Positions 784 through 57,703 of a DNA stretch of 58,766 nt are shown piece after piece. The notes beneath the pieces are model-generated. The model did not search any database. It saw only the letters and a program-made list of their open reading frames with translations, and was not told the origin of the DNA. Made by a program: the position numbers and the translations under genes. This DNA is from Candidatus Uhrbacteria bacterium (GTDB lineage: Bacteria > Patescibacteriota > Patescibacteriia > 2-12-FULL-60-25). Position 1 is the first letter of the stretch, and each line of letters begins with the position of its first letter. Location of the stretch: contig SICT01000001.1 in the NCBI GenBank assembly GCA_009691315.1, forward strand, positions 1 through 58,766, written 5' to 3'.

Positions 784-2215
784 AACGTCGTCTCAACCAA
801 TTTTTCAAAAGAGTAAAATCCTCCTGTCGTAAAAGTTTCACGATCGTCAGCAAGAGAATCGTCAGAATACCTGTACTCATCAATGCAATGATCAACGGCA
901 TGAAACTGAATACATAATGGATGATCAACCAAAGCAAGGCGGCGACGATCAATCCACGAATAACAAACCACAAGAACCAACTGATGCGTGCAACATCCTT
1001 TCTCACAAACCAAGCTCCGATCAAAAAAAGCCAAGAAAAGCTCACGACCGCAGCCCAGGCTGCTCCAACCGGACCAAGAGAAGGAACGAGCAAAAAATTC
1101 ATCACAACATTCAACACCATAGTGACTCCCATCGCGATCGTTTTCTGGCCGGCACGATGCGTTGCATTAAGCAAAGAACCAATCGGAAAGTCAAGAAAAA
1201 GTGGAATGAGAACCCAAGGCAAAATGATTAATGGGGCAACCGATCCAAGATAGGCCTGGCCATACACCAGTGGTACCAAACGCGGAGCAAAAGCGGAAAG
1301 ACCGGCCGCCAGTGGAATAGCCAAAACCATCATCAAACGGAGAGAACCGATAAACAGGCGGTTCATCCCGTCACGATCATTCGCCGCATGGACGGCACTC
1401 ATGCTGGGATAAAGCGCCGCCACAAATGTCAGGGGCAAAAATTGAAAAGAATAAGTTACTTTATACGCAATGGCGTAATAACCAACGGCAATCGCATCAT
1501 GAAATTGTTTGAGCAAAAGAGTATCAACGTAAGAATACACACGTACAAAAATTCCAGCCAGAGCAAATGGTAAAGCGAAACGTAAAAGTTTGAGAGCGGG
1601 CCAGTTGCCATCGGTCGTGAACGAAATCCCCTGTTTACGACTTTTGTGAATACTCCAAAAAACATTCCACGCACTGCCGCAGAATAAACCAAAGATCAGA
1701 CCAGATACACCGTGAAAGAAAAACACGGAGACCAACGTGACGATCGCCGTAATGATTTGTCCAAGAAACATTCCCCAAGCCTCAAAGCGTAATTTTTGTG
1801 TGCTGCGTAAAGCACCATACCAAACAAGCGAAAGATTATCTGCAGACATGACAAAACAAGCGATCGCCACGGCCACAATCGTTTCGCGTTCCGCCTGTGT
1901 TGACCAAACATAAGCCAATGCGGCAAGAGCGGCGAGCGGAATCAAGACAGACTTGATTTTGAGCGCGCGACCGAGAAGCGCTTGTCCATGCACCACATTT
2001 GCCGCCATCTCGCGAATGATCACGGGCGTTAATCCGAGATCAGCAATGATACCGAAGGCCGAAGTCACAGAAACAGCATAAAAATAGCTCCCCGTAATAT
2101 GGACTCCAACCAAGCGTGCCACCAACGTAAATGTCAAAAAAGAGATCACTTTCTGCCCGGTCGTAGCGAGGGTCAACCACAACGCATTTTGTGCCACCAT
2201 TTTTGCTTGAGACAT
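776..2215 (-). CDS. Polysaccharide/oligosaccharide flippase (MOP superfamily, Wzx/MurJ-like)
   Basis: The 479-aa ORF is hydrophobic throughout, with many predicted TM helices. The N-terminus ...NALWLTLATTGQKVISFLTFTLVARLVG... is typical of polysaccharide biosynthesis flippases. It is operonic with a GT4 gene. Confidence 0.8.
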   Translation of the reverse strand: MSQAKMVAQNALWLTLATTGQKVISFLTFTLVARLVGVHITGSYFYAVSVTSAFGIIADLGLTPVIIREMAANVVHGQALLGRALKIKSVLIPLAALAALAYVWSTQAERETIVAVAIACFVMSADNLSLVWYGALRSTQKLRFEAWGMFLGQIITAIVTLVSVFFFHGVSGLIFGLFCGSAWNVFWSIHKSRKQGISFTTDGNWPALKLLRFALPFALAGIFVRVYSYVDTLLLKQFHDAIAVGYYAIAYKVTYSFQFLPLTFVAALYPSMSAVHAANDRDGMNRLFIGSLRLMMVLAIPLAAGLSAFAPRLVPLVYGQAYLGSVAPLIILPWVLIPLFLDFPIGSLLNATHRAGQKTIAMGVTMVLNVVMNFLLVPSLGPVGAAWAAVVSFSWLFLIGAWFVRKDVARISWFLWFVIRGLIVAALLWLIIHYVFSFMPLIIALMSTGILTILLLTIVKLLRQEDFTLLKNWLRRRYA

Positions 2216-3109: not shown

Positions 3110-3631
3110 TTAACGCTTTGACCACTGCGGTGCGCGTCTGGCTTTTTTCAAACCGAATTTCTTGCGTTCCTTGGCGCGCGGATCACGGGTGAGATATCCC
3201 ATTTTCTTTAGTGTTTGACGATAGGCTGGATTTAAAATGATGAGCGTGCGGCACAATCCAAGACGAATGGCTTCTGCCTGTCCACGAATACCTCCTCCAT
3301 TGACCGAAGCACTCAAATCTATACTCGTTTCCAAACCAACCATTGTGAGGGGAATTTTTATGGTATTACGTAATTCTTGGGTGCCAAAATATTCATCAAT
3401 TGATCGACCGTTAACAGTAATGGTCCCCTTGCCATTTTTAATTAAACGACATCGCGCGATAGATGTTTTGCGTCGACCGACGGCACCAATCCATGAACCC
3501 CCCGTGGATTCAGCAGAACCAATCGCATCCTGCACCTCCTCCTTTTCTTCAGCGGTGGCAGATTTAGGTTTCTTTGCTGTAGCGGTTTTACGCGGGGCAC
3601 GCGGTTTTTTTATCACTTCTTCCGTAGGCAT
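3110..3631 (-). CDS. rpsI: 30S ribosomal protein S9 with a Lys/Ala-rich N-terminal extension
   Basis: The sequence contains GRRKTSIARCRL...GGGIRGQAEAIRLG...KKARRAPQWSKR, which are canonical S9 blocks. It lies directly downstream of rplM. Confidence 0.95.
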   Translation of the reverse strand: MPTEEVIKKPRAPRKTATAKKPKSATAEEKEEVQDAIGSAESTGGSWIGAVGRRKTSIARCRLIKNGKGTITVNGRSIDEYFGTQELRNTIKIPLTMVGLETSIDLSASVNGGGIRGQAEAIRLGLCRTLIILNPAYRQTLKKMGYLTRDPRAKERKKFGLKKARRAPQWSKR

Positions 3632-3635
3632 AAAA

Positions 3636-4022
3636 TTATAAAACGATAATCAAACGCTTTAATCTTTCTTTCTGTGTACGATTTTTTGGCAACATATACT
3701 TGACCGCGTGACGCAATACTTCTCCTGGTTTTTCTTGCTGAAGCTTCGCCACCGGCAAACGTGTAATACCACTCGGACGGTTGGAGGAACGAAACAAAAC
3801 TTTTTGCTCCATCTTTTTTCCCGTAAACACAAGCGCGCGAGGATTCGTCACCTTCACGATCGATCCGCTATCGATGTGCGGGATATAGCTTGGCTTATCT
3901 TTCCCCATGAGCAATCTCGCAATTTCGCTCGCTAAACGCCCAACCACTTTTCCCGTGGCGTCAATCGTAACGACTTCTCGTTTTCCTGCAATGCGTGATT
4001 CGCGTTTATGATTCCAGCTCAT
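3636..4022 (-). CDS. rplM: 50S ribosomal protein L13
   Basis: The sequence ...VVTIDATGKVVGRLASEIARLLMGKDKPSYIPHID.G... is the L13 signature region. The rplM-rpsI pair is conserved. Confidence 0.95.
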   Translation of the reverse strand: MSWNHKRESRIAGKREVVTIDATGKVVGRLASEIARLLMGKDKPSYIPHIDSGSIVKVTNPRALVFTGKKMEQKVLFRSSNRPSGITRLPVAKLQQEKPGEVLRHAVKYMLPKNRTQKERLKRLIIVL

Positions 4023-5157: not shown

Positions 5158-5778
5158 TTATTGACGAGAATAAAATTCAATGATGAGTTTTGAATCAAAA
5201 GGTTGTTGTAATTCTGTGCCCGCTGGAATACCGGTCACTTTTCCAGAAATGGTTTCTGCATCAAGGGCGAGCCAAGAGGGTACATCCTTCTTGTTTTTCA
5301 ACAATTCCACGACCTGTTTCCAATTCCCTTTCTCACGCTTATTTTCCCGAATAGCAATCACGTCTCCTGTTTGAACATGATAAGATGGAATATTGAGGCG
5401 TTTACCGTTCACGGAAATATGAGCATGAGAAACAGCTTGGCGAGCAGCGGCGCGAGTCTTGACCAAACCTAAACGGTAGACCGTGTTATCTAAACGCGTT
5501 TCCAAGAATTGAACTAAGGTCTCTCCAGAATTCCCTCGTTTTGCTACAGCCGAACGAAATAAATTACGGAATTGGCGCTCGTTTAATCCGTAAATACGCT
5601 TGGCCTTTTGCTTTTCTCTGAGCTGTTTGCCGTAGTCGGTCATGCGGCCAAAGCCCTTTGGTCCATGAACTCCTGGTGGATAAGGACGGCGCGACAAGGC
5701 TCGCGCATGAGCAGCACGATCAGACAGCGGAATGCCTTCACGACGAGAGTATTTTGCCAGCGTTTTAAGAGTCTTCAT
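5158..5778 (-). CDS. rpsD: 30S ribosomal protein S4
   Basis: I trimmed the track ORF to the ATG at 5778, because the longer ORF would overlap the rpsK stop at 5784. The sequence contains ...YGKQLREKQKAKRIYGLNERQFRN... and ...RLDNTVYRLGLVKTRAAARQAVSHAHISVNGK..., which is the S4 domain. Confidence 0.93.
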   Translation of the reverse strand: MKTLKTLAKYSRREGIPLSDRAAHARALSRRPYPPGVHGPKGFGRMTDYGKQLREKQKAKRIYGLNERQFRNLFRSAVAKRGNSGETLVQFLETRLDNTVYRLGLVKTRAAARQAVSHAHISVNGKRLNIPSYHVQTGDVIAIRENKREKGNWKQVVELLKNKKDVPSWLALDAETISGKVTGIPAGTELQQPFDSKLIIEFYSRQ

Positions 5779-5783
5779 AAAGT

Positions 5784-6242
5784 TTAAACACGGCGTGGAC
5801 GTGGTGGTCGACAACCATTATGTGGAATTGGGGTGATATCTTTCATGGACAACACACCCACGCCATTGGCATTAAGAGCGCGCAATGCTCCTTCACGTCC
5901 CTGACCCACACCCGTAATAAAAACACTCACTTCTTTCAATCCAAAATCTTTCACTTTTTCCACCACATCGCGTACGATGACAGACGCGGCATACGGCGTG
6001 GCTTTTTTCGGACCCTTAAAGCCAACGACGCCGGCGCTTGACCAGGCCAGCACATTTCCATTCATATCGGTAAGTGAAACGATGGTGTTGTTATAGGTTG
6101 CTTGAATATACGCCTTCCCTTGAGGAATCTGCGTGTGGGCTTTTTTGCTCTTGCGAGGCTTGGCTTTTCCGGTCTTCTCCTTTTTCCCCTCTACAGGAGA
6201 ATCTGATTCGCCGGCTGGCTTTTTTTGAGTGTCGTCAATCAT
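5784..6242 (-). CDS. rpsK: 30S ribosomal protein S11 with an N-terminal Lys-rich extension
   Basis: ...GKAYIQATYNNTIVSLTDMNGNVLAWSSAG..GFKG.KKATPYAA... are canonical S11 blocks. Confidence 0.95.
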   Translation of the reverse strand: MIDDTQKKPAGESDSPVEGKKEKTGKAKPRKSKKAHTQIPQGKAYIQATYNNTIVSLTDMNGNVLAWSSAGVVGFKGPKKATPYAASVIVRDVVEKVKDFGLKEVSVFITGVGQGREGALRALNANGVGVLSMKDITPIPHNGCRPPRPRRV

Positions 6243-19297: not shown

Positions 19298-19395
19298 TAC
19301 ACAATGAGCGAGCGGAGACCAGAGACTGTTTCGTGGACTCACCGTGCAAACGGGGATGTCCAGGAAATAGGCTCTGGTAGGCCGCGAGACAACAG

Positions 19396-22695: not shown

Positions 22696-22732
22696 CTCCG
22701 ATCTCCGCCAGCTGGCGGATCGGAGAATTTTT
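22696..22732 (+). terminator. Rho-independent terminator of purM
   Basis: In ctccgat(ct)ccgcc-agct-ggcggatcggag I count a 12-bp interrupted stem, followed by aattttt. Confidence 0.7.
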
Positions 22733-22772
22733 ATATCCTCAATAAAATACTATAGTACTTTATTGAGGATAT
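22733..22772. repeat. 40-bp AT-rich near-perfect palindrome
   Basis: In atatcctcaataaaatacta|tagtactttattgaggatat I count 19 of 20 positions as complementary. It sits between the purM and purQ terminators. Confidence 0.8.
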
Positions 22773-22782
22773 ATTGAAAAAC

Positions 22783-45499: not shown

Positions 45500-45704
45500 G
45501 ATCACTTTGATCAGCTCATGCTTCGACAAGCTCACCATACACCAGGTCTTTAGCAATCCGCGTCCACGACAAGCATGGAATCTTTCCATAGGGTGTGGCA
45601 GGTCTTCGGACTCGCTCTCCCCTTTAGAAAGGTTTCTTGGATGCGGATTGCTCAAGCTCTGATGAAAAAACTCCCCCGGCACAGTGTCGAGGGAGTTTTG
45701 TTTT
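45500..45704 (+). ncRNA. Candidate structured small RNA (~200 nt), family not identified
   Basis: A long-range 10-bp pairing agcaatccgc (45552-61) with gcggattgct (45643-52) encloses smaller hairpins, including gtc-UUCG-gac (45602-11) and atggaa-tct-ttccat. The region is preceded by a promoter-like signal and ends at a terminator. Confidence 0.35.
45669..45704. terminator. Bidirectional rho-independent terminator
   Basis: The stem aactccc-N15-gggagtt is flanked by an A-run on the left and ttgtttt on the right, so it is usable from both strands. Confidence 0.6.
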
Positions 45705-48880: not shown

Positions 48881-49402
48881 ATGAAGCGATATCTGATAAT
48901 CGGCCTCGTCTCCGCTGTCACCCTGTTCGCCGCACTCAAGGCTGGCCCGCTCAAGGCGGAACGTCCAGCTGATCGAGCGGTGGTGGCATTGTTCTGCTCA
49001 GACTCCAGGAATGGACGATTCAAGCAAGATCTGGAAACCCATCATCCGGGATTCGTGGAGCACAACGTCCACGTCTACGAACACCAGGTCCCCGGATCGG
49101 CTATCTACGACATCATCCATGCTCACCCGGCCGTTCGGGAGCATGTGATCGAACAGATTACCATCCTACTAAGAAAGGCTCAGAAAGAGGGCGCTTCGGC
49201 TGCCATTGCCCTGGCCTATCATGAAAAGTGCGCTCGCTACCCCCAAGGCCATGAACAGGAACAGGAACGAGACGGCCTCGCAGCAAAGCATTTGCTCGAG
49301 GATCGTCTCAAGGATCTGCACCCGCAGATCCTCCTGTACAAGGCACATATGGATGATTCTCATATCACCGAGATCGAAATCATCGAACGGCCACGGCCGT
49401 GA
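48881..49402 (+). CDS. Beta-carbonic-anhydrase-like protein 1 (signal/TM anchored), highly divergent
   Basis: FCSDSR (C39-x-D41-x-R43) and HEKC (H114-x2-C117) match the C-x-D-x-R ... H-x-x-C zinc-site pattern of the beta-CA fold. The N-terminus is hydrophobic and the gene is GC-rich. Confidence 0.5.
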   Translation: MKRYLIIGLVSAVTLFAALKAGPLKAERPADRAVVALFCSDSRNGRFKQDLETHHPGFVEHNVHVYEHQVPGSAIYDIIHAHPAVREHVIEQITILLRKAQKEGASAAIALAYHEKCARYPQGHEQEQERDGLAAKHLLEDRLKDLHPQILLYKAHMDDSHITEIEIIERPRP

Positions 49403-51204: not shown

Positions 51205-53209
51205 ACGTCTCAACTTTGCGTGTTTTAGATTCTTCCATGTAAACCTCAAAGCGATCACCAATGGCAATTTTTGTTTTTCCTTTAAATGATAGTCCGCATT
51301 CCTGTCCAGCACTGACTTCTTTCACGACGGATTTTCCAGATTGTAACGATTCCAAAATCCCTTCGCCGACCGGCTCTTGACCACGCCATACGCGAACCTT
51401 AGCCCCGGCCAATAATTTTCCTGTTTTCACTTTCGCGCCCAAAATCATTTTTCCCGGATCGGTGCGAAACACGGCGGCAATTTCCGCTTCGCCAAGGGCT
51501 GTCACAATCAATTCTTGTGGCAAAAGTCTATTTAAGCGCGCCACCACATCATCAAACAACTCATAAATAATTTTATAACTCTTGATTTCTACCCCCTTGT
51601 CTCGCGCATCACTTTCAATGGCTGCAGGCGTCATCACATTAAATCCATACACGACAGAGGGTTTGGCATTTGCTGCGCGTTCAATATCTGATTCCGTCAC
51701 ATTGCCTAAACCCTTTTGAATGACGTCTGTCCCGACGAGTTCATGTTTAATTTTTTCCAACATGCCAAGCAACGCTTCAAGCGAACCTAATACGTCGGTT
51801 TTCAAAACAATATTTAACGTAATTTTTTTGTTCGCGGTTTCTTCTTCCGTTGGTACCGCTTTCGTGGCCGTGAATGCTTCTGCTACCTGACGCGAGGTTT
51901 TGGCTTTTTTCTGTTCGAGCATTTTTGGATCTTCTGGTACTTCCAAAATATCTCCCACCGCTGGCGCGACTTTAAATCCTAAAATTTTCACTGGCATACC
52001 TGGCCCCGCCTCATCGACCATGGCACCTGTCCAATCACGCATGGCACGCACGCGACCATACGCAGCACCGGCAATGCCTAAACAATCATTACGATGAAGG
52101 GTTCCCGTTTGCACGAGCACCGTCGCGACTGGACCCTCGCCTTTATCCACATGCGATTCAACAATCGTTCCGGCGGCTTTGCGTTCCGGATTAGCCATGA
52201 TGTGATCTTTTTCGACTTCAGCCACGAGCAAAATTAAATCCAATAATTCTGGAATGCCTTGTCCGGTTTTAGCCGAAATTTTTGTCATGGGTGTTTTTCC
52301 TCCCCACTCTTCAACGGTGACACCGATTTCCGCCAATTGTCCCATGACGCGATTAGGATCCGCTTCCGGTTTATCAATCTTGTTCAATGCGACCACGAAC
52401 GGAAGTTTGGCCGCTTGAATAATCTGTACAGCTTCTTTTGTTTGAGGTTGAACACCATCATCAGCTGCAACAACCAAGATCGCAATGTCAGCGACCTTCG
52501 CACCACGTGAACGCATGACCGTAAACGCTTCATGGCCAGGCGTGTCGATAAACGTAATCTTTTTTCCATTTTTTTCTGTTTGATATGCCCCGATGTGTTG
52601 TGTAATCCCTCCAGATTCTTTTTCCATCACATGCGTTTGACGAATCGCATCAAGCGTACGCGTTTTTCCGTGATCCACATGACCCATCACCACGACCACT
52701 GGCGCACGCGGCACAAGATCCTCCGTTTTTTCCTGTTCCAGTAAAGATTTGATGCGATTGGTTGATTCCTCCTCTCCCGCTTGCTCACTCGCTAATACAG
52801 ATTCCGGATTAGCTTTAAATCCAAGTTCCTCAGCAATGATGGCCGCCGTTGTAAAATCAATGCGCTCATTTTGTGACGCGAGAATTCCGGCACGCATCAA
52901 TTGTTGAATCACACGTGTAACAGGCAAACCGAGTTTTCCCGCAAAATCACGCACGCTCAATACCGATGGCAAAGCCACTTCTGTTTTTACGACAGGCGCT
53001 CCGCTTGGATCCACGGTCGATGATCGAACGAGTTGATCTCGTAAACGCTCACGCCGTGCATTCTCCAACCACTTTTTATAAATTTGATCTGCCACCCGAT
53101 CATCCACTTTTATGGCCCGCCCGCCAATATCAAAACCAAGCGCTGGCAATTTTGTCAGCAATTCATTTGGCGTGATACGCAGTCGTCGAGCGAGTTCTGT
53201 AACATTCAT
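51197..53209 (-). CDS. infB: Translation initiation factor IF-2
   Basis: The G domain motifs are GHVDHGKT...DTPGH...NKID. The start is set at the ATG at 53209 ([12 protein letters not shown]..., the usual IF-2 N-terminal helix). An alternative ATG at 53254 would add 15 aa. Confidence 0.92.
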
Positions 53210-53252
53210 GGGTCGCTTGATTCTAAATGGATTTGATGGTTTAGTCAATGTC

Positions 53253-53966
53253 ATGAACGGCTTTCTCTTAATCGATAAACCCGGCGGGATCACCTCGCAT
53301 GATGTTGTGGATGCGGTACGGCGCGTGGCTGGCATCCGTGCGGTTGGTCATGCGGGAACCCTTGATCCGTTTGCCACCGGACTCTTAATTTTAGGCCTTG
53401 GTCCAGCCACAAAAAAACTTGGTGAGTTGATTGGTCTCGACAAAACCTATGAAGCAACACTGACGCTCGGCGCGACCAGTGATACGTTTGATCGGGATGG
53501 AGTGATTACGGTAGGGGCGCACCCAAGCGTGCGCCCCTCGGCCGACCGATCAGGGCAGACACATGGGTCTGCCCCTACCGAGTCAGAGATCGAATCCGTT
53601 CTCGATCAATTCCGCGGGGGTTACGATCAACGGGCACCAATTTTTTCGGCCAAAAAAATCAAAGGAAAAAAACTCTATGAACTGGCACGAGCTGGAACGG
53701 CAACAGAAGAGATGCGTCCGATCAAGCATGTGACAATCAGCGAACTTTCGATACTCGATGCCCAATACCCAATACTACGTCTCCGCATCGTTTGTTCTTC
53801 TGGTACGTACATTCGTTCTCTCGCTGATGACATTGGGCGTGCGCTTGGTGTTGGCGCCTATCTCTCCGAACTTCGTCGAACATCCATTGGAACCTGGTCT
53901 GTGAATAACGCAATTCCTCTCAAAAATCTCAACAAATCTGATCTAGACAAAATTCTCATAAAATGA
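53253..53966 (+). CDS. truB: tRNA pseudouridine(55) synthase
   Basis: I trimmed the ORF to the ATG at 53253. MNGFLLIDKPGGITSHDVV...VGHAGTLDPFATGLL contains the catalytic Asp motif, and ...CSSGTYIRSLA.D.G is also present. Confidence 0.92.
   Translation: MNGFLLIDKPGGITSHDVVDAVRRVAGIRAVGHAGTLDPFATGLLILGLGPATKKLGELIGLDKTYEATLTLGATSDTFDRDGVITVGAHPSVRPSADRSGQTHGSAPTESEIESVLDQFRGGYDQRAPIFSAKKIKGKKLYELARAGTATEEMRPIKHVTISELSILDAQYPILRLRIVCSSGTYIRSLADDIGRALGVGAYLSELRRTSIGTWSVNNAIPLKNLNKSDLDKILIK
53510..53579. repeat. GC-rich nested palindromic element lying in frame within truB
   Basis: The outer arms ggtagggg/cccctacc enclose two hairpins, ggggcgcac-N6-gtgcgcccc and gggcagac-N6-gtctgccc. The element encodes ~VGAHPSVRPSADRSGQTHGSAP. 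Confidence 0.75.
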
Positions 53967-55708: not shown

Positions 55709-57703
55709 ATGCAGAAAATTCAGAAATACACTCTCCTATTGGTGAGTGTTCTTGCTCTGCAATCCATCCTCCAGACCATTTTTTATTATCTTGGATGGCA
55801 TTTGGGATGGATGACGGATGTGGGAAGCTTCGTTTTGAGTTTGGGAATTCTTATTCTCGTTCTCAAGCGTCACGGGTCCTGCCACGGCGCCACCCACTCC
55901 GTACTCGTCCCGCGACGGGACTCCGTGCTGAGCGGGGCCCGTCGCCGTGTCACCCGTGATGTCGTATTTCTCCTTCTATCTGTTTTAGTGACGATTTTCA
56001 TCCTCTGGACCACGATTACGCACGCCACAACAGAATCCATCCGCACCCCTTGGCCCTTACTTGGATCGGCAACGTTGATCGCTCTCGCTATTTCTTTTTT
56101 AAGTTTGATTTTAGTTGCGTGGAAATCCCGTTCGATCATTTGCACCGCTTTCGCAAGCACCCTCACAATCATGAGTGTGACATTCATCACGCCGCTCCTA
56201 TACAAACTTGGCTTTGGCTTTGATGGTTTCCTGCATCGTGCCAGCGAAAATATTATATTACAAACCGGCACGCTCGATCCGCATCCTGCTTACTATATTG
56301 GTCAATATGTATTTGTCACCTGGCTTTCGCGCGTGACAACCATCCCGCTCCATTTCATGGACATCTGGCTTGTCCCGCTCGCGGCTCTCCTTATCCCCTT
56401 CTTTTTGTTGTTGATGGATCTTCCCTCATCATACAAACGCGTGATGCTCGTCACACTTCCACTTCTCCTTCCATTCACACCATTGATCGTCACCACTCCA
56501 CAATCTTTTGCCTATCTGCTGGGCTTTTTTGCCCTTTGTACTGCTTTAGGATATCGATCAAACCAACTCCCTTTGATCGTTCCCCTGTCACTTGTTGCTT
56601 GGTCACTCGTCACACACCCTCTCGCCGGAATTCCATTTTTGGGAGCCGTGATCGGCATTTTACTCATGGCAACGGGTGAGGCATCCCTGCATCGCGAGAC
56701 TGCGGGCAGCGAGCAGGGCGGGGATGCCTCACCCGTTGCACGACAGCTTGTTTATCTTGCCATCATTATTTTAACATCCGCCACGATTCCCCTTCTGTTT
56801 TTCTTTACCAATGGTTTTTCTTTTCACTCATACTCGATCCTTAATACTTTATACTCAATACTCACGCCACCGATCATCCACGTTTCTTTTTGGATCGATT
56901 GGTCCGCATTTATTGATTATCTGTTCCCATTCATGCTGATCTTGCTCGCGTTCTTTTCACATAAAAATCGACAAGCCTGTTTTCTTCTTTTTCTTGGTCT
57001 TGGAATGACCGTCGCGAGTCTTATCCTGAAAGCCACCGGCAATTTCTCCTTCTTGATTGATTATGAACGCTCAAACTACGCAGATCGATTATTGATTCTG
57101 GCACAGCTCTTTCTCCTCATTCCTGCGTTGATTGGAAGCACTACAATCATTCATCAATGGAAACGCATCTCAATCTTTCCTGTCGCCTTCTGCTTGATCA
57201 TCCTCGCCGCTTGGTTTTCTGCGCGTGCCTATTTCACTTTTCCACGCCATGATGCCGCAATCACCGGTCATGCTTGGAGCATGGGACAAGCGGATATCGA
57301 TGCCGTACGCTGGATAGAACAAAATGCCCAAGGCAAACCCTACACGGTGCTAGCCAATCAATCAGTCAGTGCCGCAGCCATCCAAGAATTTGGATTTAAA
57401 CGGTACACGGATAAAAATATTTTTTATTATCCGATTCCAACGGGTGGCCCTCTCTATCAACACTTTCTTGAGGCGAGCAGCGTAAACCCTCAGAATGAAC
57501 ACGCCACACAGCAAGCGATACGACAAGCTTCGCAACTCGGAAAAAGTGACTTGGTCTATGTAGTGATAAATAATTATTGGTGGGATGCCGAAAATGTAAA
57601 CAGGTGGTTATCCCATATCACCACTGACCCTGTTGGTGTAATCCGAAATGGGAAAATACGTATTTATGAGTTTGATCTTAGCAATCCTAATATCTTCTTT
57701 TGA
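55709..57703 (+). CDS. Large polytopic membrane protein with a C-terminal soluble domain (GT-C-like architecture, function unknown)
   Basis: The 664-aa product has many TM helices and ~150 soluble C-terminal residues. It lies beside a GT4 gene. The family assignment is by architecture only. Confidence 0.55.
   Translation: MQKIQKYTLLLVSVLALQSILQTIFYYLGWHLGWMTDVGSFVLSLGILILVLKRHGSCHGATHSVLVPRRDSVLSGARRRVTRDVVFLLLSVLVTIFILWTTITHATTESIRTPWPLLGSATLIALAISFLSLILVAWKSRSIICTAFASTLTIMSVTFITPLLYKLGFGFDGFLHRASENIILQTGTLDPHPAYYIGQYVFVTWLSRVTTIPLHFMDIWLVPLAALLIPFFLLLMDLPSSYKRVMLVTLPLLLPFTPLIVTTPQSFAYLLGFFALCTALGYRSNQLPLIVPLSLVAWSLVTHPLAGIPFLGAVIGILLMATGEASLHRETAGSEQGGDASPVARQLVYLAIIILTSATIPLLFFFTNGFSFHSYSILNTLYSILTPPIIHVSFWIDWSAFIDYLFPFMLILLAFFSHKNRQACFLLFLGLGMTVASLILKATGNFSFLIDYERSNYADRLLILAQLFLLIPALIGSTTIIHQWKRISIFPVAFCLIILAAWFSARAYFTFPRHDAAITGHAWSMGQADIDAVRWIEQNAQGKPYTVLANQSVSAAAIQEFGFKRYTDKNIFYYPIPTGGPLYQHFLEASSVNPQNEHATQQAIRQASQLGKSDLVYVVINNYWWDAENVNRWLSHITTDPVGVIRNGKIRIYEFDLSNPNIFF
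55870..55959. repeat. GC-rich concentric-palindrome element in frame within the membrane-protein gene
   Basis: The nested arms are tcacgggt/acccgtga (55870-77 / 55952-59), cacggcg/cgccgtg (55883-89 / 55943-49) and a central gtcccg-cga-cgggac (55907-21). The element encodes HGSCHGATHSVLVPRRDSVLSGARRRVTRD. Confidence 0.7.
56669..56739. repeat. GC-rich element with 19-bp perfect inverted arms in frame within the membrane-protein gene
   Basis: The arms gcaacgggtgaggcatccc and gggatgcctcacccgttgc are separated by 33 nt. By my count 50 of 71 nt are G+C. The element encodes ~ATGEASLHRETAGSEQGGDASPVA. Confidence 0.8.

Follow-up and report, generated by a model that had tools for sequence, protein, structure and literature searches.

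A 71-nt GC-rich palindrome carried in frame by a membrane-protein gene of Candidatus Uhrbacteria

In-frame palindromic inserts, which have been documented mainly in Rickettsia and in some Proteobacteria, illustrate how a protein can be reshaped and yet not destroyed by DNA that is selfish or prone to form structures. Here we describe a 71-nt GC-rich palindrome, termed element C, which lies within the gene of a polytopic membrane protein of a Candidatus Uhrbacteria bacterium (contig SICT01000001.1), together with two neighbouring hairpin blocks, A and B. The analyzed stretch, in the following called the window, comprises 58,766 nt (58.8 kb), and coordinates are window positions unless another locus is named. 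Short GC-rich hairpins are known as mobile inserts of AT-leaning genomes from yeast mitochondria, where GC clusters and byp elements are found, some of them in protein-coding genes. These elements are organellar and multi-copy, and byps are skipped by the ribosome and not translated.

Among bacteria, the closest described systems are the repetitive extragenic palindromic (REP) dimers and REPINs, which are mobilised by Y1 transposases of the RAYT type (Di Nocera et al. 2013, PMC3733652; Bertels and Rainey 2011, PMC3116915), and the Rickettsia palindromic elements (RPEs; Ogata et al. 2000, as reviewed in PMC10969869). A REP dimer is defined by two inverted, self-folding stem-loops with stems of 5–13 bp and loops of 2–20 nt. 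GTAG-tagged REPs form head-to-head dimers, also inside open reading frames (ORFs), where more than 50% are dimers and encode 20–30 amino acids (aa) (PMC3733652). Intragenic REP dimers, including those in truB, are already published for other phyla: the truB genes of Stenotrophomonas, Erythrobacter and Sphingopyxis are interrupted by REPs and that of Rickettsia conorii by RPE-1 (PMC3733652). The phyla with catalogued REP families do not include Patescibacteria (PMC3733652), and a full-text search of a paper collection returned no report of palindromic or REP-type elements in the Candidate Phyla Radiation (CPR)/Patescibacteria. RPEs, which insert in frame into Rickettsia genes (PMC10969869), are about 100–150 bp long and form Rickettsia-specific multi-copy families with conserved peptides, located in unrelated genes of a small reduced genome, truB included. 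Furthermore, it is known from E. coli that template switching makes imperfect inverted repeats perfect (PMC7202029), and coding DNA, too, is known to be remodelled by it (PMC8604942).

Element C as extra DNA in a membrane-protein gene

The left arm of element C, GCAACGGGTGAGGCATCCC (56669–56687), is followed by its exact reverse complement at 56721–56739, corroborating the initial annotation, in which arms perfectly complementary over 19 bp had been described. The pairing reaches 22 nt if one mismatch is allowed (56669–56690 with 56718–56739), leaving 27 nt in between. Perfect 19-bp inverted repeats with a spacer of at most 150 nt are expected 3e-5 times per window, or 5e-4 times if the window had a G+C content of 70%, which agrees with the earlier statement that such arms are very unlikely to arise by chance. 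With up to three mismatches, the arm was found in the window at its own two positions only, and 100 shuffles gave 0 matches. The G+C content amounts to 50/71 (70.4%), exactly as counted before, compared to 44.8% for the rest of the host ORF and 47.2% for the window; arms and spacer are alike in this respect, all being around 70% G+C in a 45% gene. The RNA fold of the element has an energy of −55.8 kcal/mol (z = −6.9 against dinucleotide shuffles, with 0/200 shuffles as stable) and is the most stable 80–90-nt fold of the entire window, also after the energy had been regressed on G+C (z = −6.7). Structurally, it is a single long stem with a poorly structured 27-nt apex. The inverted repeat is confirmed as real and statistically solid.

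Element C is read through in frame, as had been noted, without any stop codon, and is directly followed by ACGACAGCTTG. Homologues of the host protein are hypothetical proteins of Candidatus Uhrbacteria and Patescibacteria which are 36–46% identical to it, the closest one showing 46%. The window as a whole is a core-genome stretch with genes for ribosomal proteins, RpoA, IF-1, TruB and RNase Y, and no tRNA, rRNA or other Rfam family was matched in it at gathering thresholds. The AlphaFold2 model of the host protein (25 homologues; predicted local distance difference test (pLDDT) 82.9, predicted template modelling score (pTM) 0.88) is confident overall and depicts a membrane protein that is polytopic and helical and has an alpha/beta domain at its C-terminus. 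Therein, element C appears as an outward extension of the helices 304–333 and 342–368, with a pLDDT of 63–79 compared to 94–97 in the flanks.

Conservation of the encoded 24-aa loop in orthologues, which had been named as an argument against a mobile origin, was not observed when this comparison was run: the loop is missing from 24/24 aligned orthologues (25-sequence alignment). The closest orthologues, P0002 and P0006, have zero residues at this site and the others have 0–15 unrelated ones, the window protein having the longest loop. The 24 residues fall in a length-variable hydrophilic loop between two transmembrane helices, in agreement with the hydrophilic loop between hydrophobic helices of the initial annotation. 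In the closest relative, locus L031, which is syntenic (truB–rny–membrane protein–glycosyltransferase), the site is short, unrelated in sequence and without a hairpin. The G+C content at codon positions 1/2/3 is 0.79/0.67/0.62 in element C versus 0.48/0.39/0.47 in the rest of the gene. Being high at all three positions, it has the look of DNA on which the coding constraints of the host have not acted. Together with the absence of the loop from all aligned orthologues, this shows that element C is lineage-specific, compositionally foreign extra DNA, placed in frame in an inter-helix loop. An extra loop in the orthologous membrane protein P0017 (L001, ~965–1045) was inspected as a C-like element and rejected, its DNA forming a different, weak hairpin.

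With roughly even confidence we take element C to be a tolerated, lineage-specific in-frame palindromic insertion of the selfish-hairpin kind (REP/REPIN, RPE or small element similar to MITEs, the miniature transposable elements with inverted repeats), possibly perfected in situ. The kind is known; the phylum and the specific sequence are new. The element would have arrived as a single-stranded, hairpin-forming element or via a short recombination patch, as documented for the truB element (see below), and may owe its survival to a length that leaves the reading frame intact and to a loop that would tolerate about 24 extra residues rich in Ala, Gly, Glu and Ser. The perfect arms could stem from a recent event or from replication template switching which mended a quasi-palindrome to perfection. 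Given that all 72 nt are foreign and absent from relatives, template switching cannot account for element C completely, though it is able to explain the perfect arms. The mRNA would have to carry a 22-bp GC-rich stem, for which no function need be assumed; a cost or an effect of this stem on translation or mRNA stability is possible. Taken by itself, element C is of modest consequence, being a single additional loop that is tolerated by one membrane protein, itself uncharacterised.

GTAG-REP dimers in truB and palindromes in orthologues

Elements A, B and C are three GC-rich hairpin blocks which lie within 3.3 kb in two genes and are all frame-preserving (Table 1). Of the window's five most extreme 80-nt folds, three belong to these blocks, which also take the first three ranks when 90-nt segments are ordered by raw energy. 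Element B shares the single-stem architecture and the poorly structured apex with element C and is located in a length-variable loop, which was modelled as disordered by AlphaFold2. Both elements carry the same terminal 8-mer, ACGGGTGA, at their ends, the terminal form being (C)ACGGGTGA...TCACCCGT(G), with a positional null of ~0.005. This common 8-mer is suggestive, though not decisive. The resemblance of the termini of C to those of the 55870–55959 element, as noted in the initial annotation, thus holds for the 8-mer, but the overall similarity is not significant.

Element A, in truB, has outer GTAG tags, two inverted GC-rich stem-loops and sub-families with compensatory stem changes, and its halves fold alone (−25.6 and −15.8 kcal/mol). 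It thereby fits every structural criterion of a GTAG-REP dimer, and truB is a published REP target. Five further loci, which come from different samples, have homologues of A at this very TruB loop, the copy in L021 being degenerate. All of the REP units in these six loci (11/11) fit the pattern GTAG-GGGC-NNAY-loop-RTNN-GCCC, and 10/11 of the 8-bp stems are perfect despite 2–3 variable positions. At the 3' end of A, the frame that is translated in the window differs from that of L016 and L017, and the DNA of A is 86% identical between the window and L017, compared to 72% and 66% in the flanking gene. Consequently, the conserved entity is the DNA and not the peptide. Hairpins of the type GTAGGGGC were located at truB only, both in the 58.8 kb of the window and in the 20.7 kb of L016; their recurrence was observed across genomes and not inside a single one.

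In an alignment of 120 homologues the TruB loop has a baseline length of 13–16 aa, and about 25 of the proteins show expansions that start with ...VGA... and end with ...AP..., which are the translation of GTAGGGGC...GCCCCTAC. These REP-type inserts, which are present at the TruB loop of many Patescibacteria, are scattered over the TruB tree and adjoin close sisters that are free of inserts. For the closest such pair, the filled L024 and the nearly identical but empty L025, the identity drops from 97.5% ahead of a patch to 51% inside it and is 99.4% behind it. The patch spans ~95 nt, diverged flanks included, so gain or loss takes place via a short recombination tract with co-converted flanks rather than via a clean cut-and-paste event. 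Other peptides also recur at the TruB loop, namely IPAKAGIQ, SRFHGND/SSFHWND and PSEAEGS (P0212, P0126, P0197, P0184, P0237 and P0208; also in the membrane orthologue P0017); presumably these resemble translations of other widespread small palindromic repeats. As for truB itself, the longest ORF (53112–53966) has 46 codons ahead of the conserved N-terminus MNGFLLIDKP... and extends into the minus-strand ORF that precedes it; translation probably starts near 53250, and the listed start at 53112 is probably too early.

Palindromes of their own were also observed in orthologues of the host protein. In the closest one, the B-site loop contains a 129-nt in-frame element (L031, 4606–4734) with 33-nt arms that are 100% complementary; its composition is close to that of the host, its centre is a small GC hairpin (GCTCCCC-GACA-GGGGAGC) and its sequence is unrelated to B or C. 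Orthologue P0003 has, in its variable B-site loop, a perfect palindrome of 13 bp (CCGGCGAAGCCGG GC CCGGCTTCGCCGG; L030, ~3380–3410), which is read in frame as HPAKPGPASPG.

Kind and origin of element C

Element C agrees with the REP dimers and REPINs in being a ~70-nt GC-rich palindromic unit that forms one long hairpin, is intragenic and in frame, encodes 20–30 aa and has no obvious target duplication. It differs from them in that it is untagged and does not consist of two stem-loops, and in that no other copies and no RAYT are known for it. The assignment of C to the same class as the truB element, as proposed in the initial annotation, is therefore tenable for the length class but not for the architecture, since the truB element is a GTAG-REP dimer. 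With the RPEs, element C has in common that it is palindromic, in frame and translated, and a fold-compatible peptide is a trait of either; whereas RPEs are 100–150-bp repeated families with a conserved peptide, C has 71 nt, is far more G+C-rich than its host and is so far single-copy. Judged by the features of MITEs, terminal inverted repeats are present, the 3-nt GCA direct repeat overlaps the inverted repeat and no further copies were found. Quasi-palindrome template-switch mutations (PMC7202029; PMC8604942) likewise give perfectly homogenised arms and a short spacer, are possible in coding DNA and create new peptide segments, but they edit existing sequence and give no account of 72 nt of foreign DNA. 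Compared to byp elements, nothing points to bypassing of C, which is in frame and stop-free.

Several other candidates were rejected. A translational bypass was dropped, the frame being open and continuous. An intrinsic terminator was dismissed, as none of A, B and C appeared in the terminator scan and no T tract follows C. Rfam 15 gave 0 family matches at gathering thresholds, the generic hairpin mir-504 being the only sub-threshold hit (25.4 vs 57 bits), and with no family match the reading as a riboswitch or other non-coding RNA was discarded. An attC-like site was considered and dropped.

The genome and metagenome collections searched for further copies do not contain the window's own genome, its contig not having been recovered from them, so the copy number within that genome is not covered. 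The exact-arm scan (ACGGGTGAGGCATCCCYGC) gave 6 matches in 596 Gb of species-representative genomes and 8 in the metagenomes of the Joint Genome Institute (JGI). All 14 were single-arm matches in which the similarity ends at the pattern and no partner arm is present, and their number is about that expected by chance. Besides the window protein itself (E = 9e-9), an exhaustive HMMER search with 30 residues spanning element C against 1.84 billion protein representatives returned only a single tandem-repeat protein, which is unrelated. Among the viral contigs, a looser 10+10 hairpin pattern had 4 matches, which are ordinary hairpins or terminators and diverge from C straight after the specified bases. 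No donor of C or B was present in ~290 kb of examined sequence, window included.

A number of results weigh against the reading of element C as a selfish hairpin. No second copy was detected in the window, in the genomes and metagenomes just described, in viral contigs (0 arm matches) or at the level of the real-frame peptide. There is no convincing target-site duplication, the only possible one being the 3-nt GCA repeat that overlaps the inverted repeat, and the Pfam scan, which covered 23 ORFs of the window, brought up neither a transposase nor a RAYT. Element C lacks a CGTC tag as well as the GTAG tag and its variants (GYAG, GYRG, GTRG, GTMG, GTGG), having GTGA in that place, paired with TCAC. 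Its halves reach only −8.1 and −14.4 kcal/mol versus −54.4 kcal/mol for the whole and are no self-folding units; by tag and half-unit folding, C falls outside the GTAG-REP family. The sequences of A, B and C are mutually unrelated, their local alignments being no better than those of shuffles. Finally, the unrelated perfect palindromes in L031 and L030 make a local palindrome-generating process possible that requires no mobile family. The repeated mobile family proposed in the initial annotation is accordingly unsupported so far, with an arm that is unique in the window and has no counterpart in the searched collections, and mobility of C itself is not demonstrated.

The main rival, or complement, to transposition is the genesis of the palindrome in situ, by which intramolecular template switching during replication, either as quasi-palindrome correction or as inverted duplication, would have copied one arm from the other, homogenised the two and turned a short GC-rich loop-coding segment into a long perfect inverted repeat, again without a mobile family. 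The recurrence of unique perfect palindromes in the variable loops of one gene family (33-nt arms in L031, 13 bp in L030) is not predicted by a single mobile family and fits template switching, and the perfection of the arms of C over 19 bp and the orphan status of its sequence in every search point in the same direction, as does the established capability of template switching to perfect inverted repeats (PMC7202029) and to remodel coding DNA (PMC8604942). However, arms and spacer are ~70% G+C throughout in a 45% gene, and the whole 72 nt are absent from orthologues, so the material cannot come from template switching alone, and an earlier insertion, foreign or GC-rich, of ~49 nt or more is still needed. 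Moreover, no donor sequence exists in the window, and the terminal 8-mer common to B and C is not predicted. We consider this origin somewhat unlikely. A distinctly unlikely, more general proposal is that Uhrbacteria and related Patescibacteria possess a process which repeatedly seeds and grows perfect palindromes in loop-coding DNA, with C, B, the 129-nt element of L031 and the truB dimers as its stages. Small GC-rich REP-like hairpins would be acquired via recombination patches and then be extended into the flanking host codons by template switching; if true, hairpin DNA would be a regular source of new protein loops in reduced genomes.

A selected nucleic-acid structure would imply that the stem acts in the mRNA, as a translational pause aiding membrane insertion, an RNase III-type site or a stabiliser, or in the DNA as a protein-binding cruciform. 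Stems of about two helical turns are the kind of substrate cut by RNase III-type enzymes, and the stem length of C fits this. The extreme fold stability of C, the perfect 8-bp stems of nearly all truB REP units in spite of their variable positions and the conservation of the DNA of A above that of its flanks are also consistent with selection. Perfect stems are, however, equally expected from REP biology or template switching, C has no Rfam family match and is not terminator-like, and its absence from every aligned orthologue means that neither conservation nor covariation is demonstrable; in our view such a role is very unlikely. An artefact of assembly or amplification that produced a spurious inverted repeat is scarcely credible. 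The window is indeed a metagenome-type contig, whose proteins lack an exact match in the public gene index, but the frame is kept across C and the 320 codons downstream align well with the orthologues. Three different blocks in two genes are all frame-preserving, homologous truB elements occur in independent assemblies from other samples, and inversion chimeras do not yield small internal frame-preserving inserts.

If the pattern described here were genome-wide, REP/REPIN biology would reach into a phylum that is very different and genome-reduced, and the variation in loop length that hampers the alignment and annotation of CPR proteins would in part be explained. In this case truB would also be a cross-phylum hot spot deserving mechanistic study. 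What appears most worth pursuing is this hot spot in truB, along with the repeated appearance of unique palindromes in loops.

Feature coordinates and minor observations

Table 1 Positions of the palindromic elements, their parts and their host genes (window coordinates unless a locus is given).
Feature	Coordinates	Strand	Remarks
Element C, 71-nt GC-rich palindrome	56669–56739	+	in-frame codons 321–344 of the membrane-protein ORF; peptide ATGEASLHRETAGSEQGGDASPVA
Left arm of C, 22 nt	56669–56690	+	first 19 nt pair perfectly
Spacer/apex of C, 27 nt	56691–56717	+	70% G+C; weak internal pairing only
Right arm of C, 22 nt	56718–56739	+	
Host ORF of B and C, 664-aa polytopic membrane protein	55709–57703	+	without Pfam family; hypothetical proteins of Candidatus Uhrbacteria/Patescibacteria as orthologues
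Element B, 90-nt imperfect long hairpin	55870–55959	+	74–77% G+C; same ORF as C, in frame, ~HGSCHGATHSVLVPRRDSVLSGARRRVTRD
Element A, head-to-head dimer of GTAG-tagged REP hairpins (REPIN-like)	53511–53578	+	inside truB, in frame as (T)VGAHPSVRPSADRSGQTHGSAP(T)
A, unit 1	53511–53538		GTAG-GGGCGCAC-CCAAGC-GTGCGCCC
A, unit 2 (inverted)	53553–53578		GGGCAGAC-ACATGG-GTCTGCCC-CTAC; 14-nt spacer between units
truB, tRNA pseudouridine-55 synthase, host of A	53250–53966	+	
A-type dimer at TruB loop	L016 10262–10331		
A-type dimer at TruB loop	L017 578–643		
A-type dimer at TruB loop	L022 10265–10319		
A-type dimer at TruB loop	L024 ~1342–1396		
A-type dimer at TruB loop	L021 ~3864–3905		

Further structured sequences were noticed outside the loops described above. 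An intergenic block (window ~45549–45656 and L022 ~5680–5790) is shared by two distantly related genomes at over 90% identity; within it lies an imperfect inverted repeat of 30 nt, behind it comes a terminator-like hairpin (45667–45699), and no Rfam family matches it. Being conserved without belonging to an Rfam family, this block is a candidate conserved small RNA. Intergenic AT-rich palindromes with 20–21-nt arms and zero spacer occur in the window (22732–22773) and in L021 (641–682, 1306–1345 and 10083–10122) and are probably bidirectional terminators. Longer inverted repeats are located at the rny/ymdB junction of L021 (5997–6095; 30-nt arms, 97% complementary) and in an intergenic spacer of L001 (2167–2315; 44-nt arms, 84% complementary). 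Finally, two further very stable folds of the window have GC-corrected z values of −5.6 (49261–49340) and −5.3 (19311–19390), the former lying inside the ORF 48881–49402, which has no Pfam match, and the latter being intergenic.

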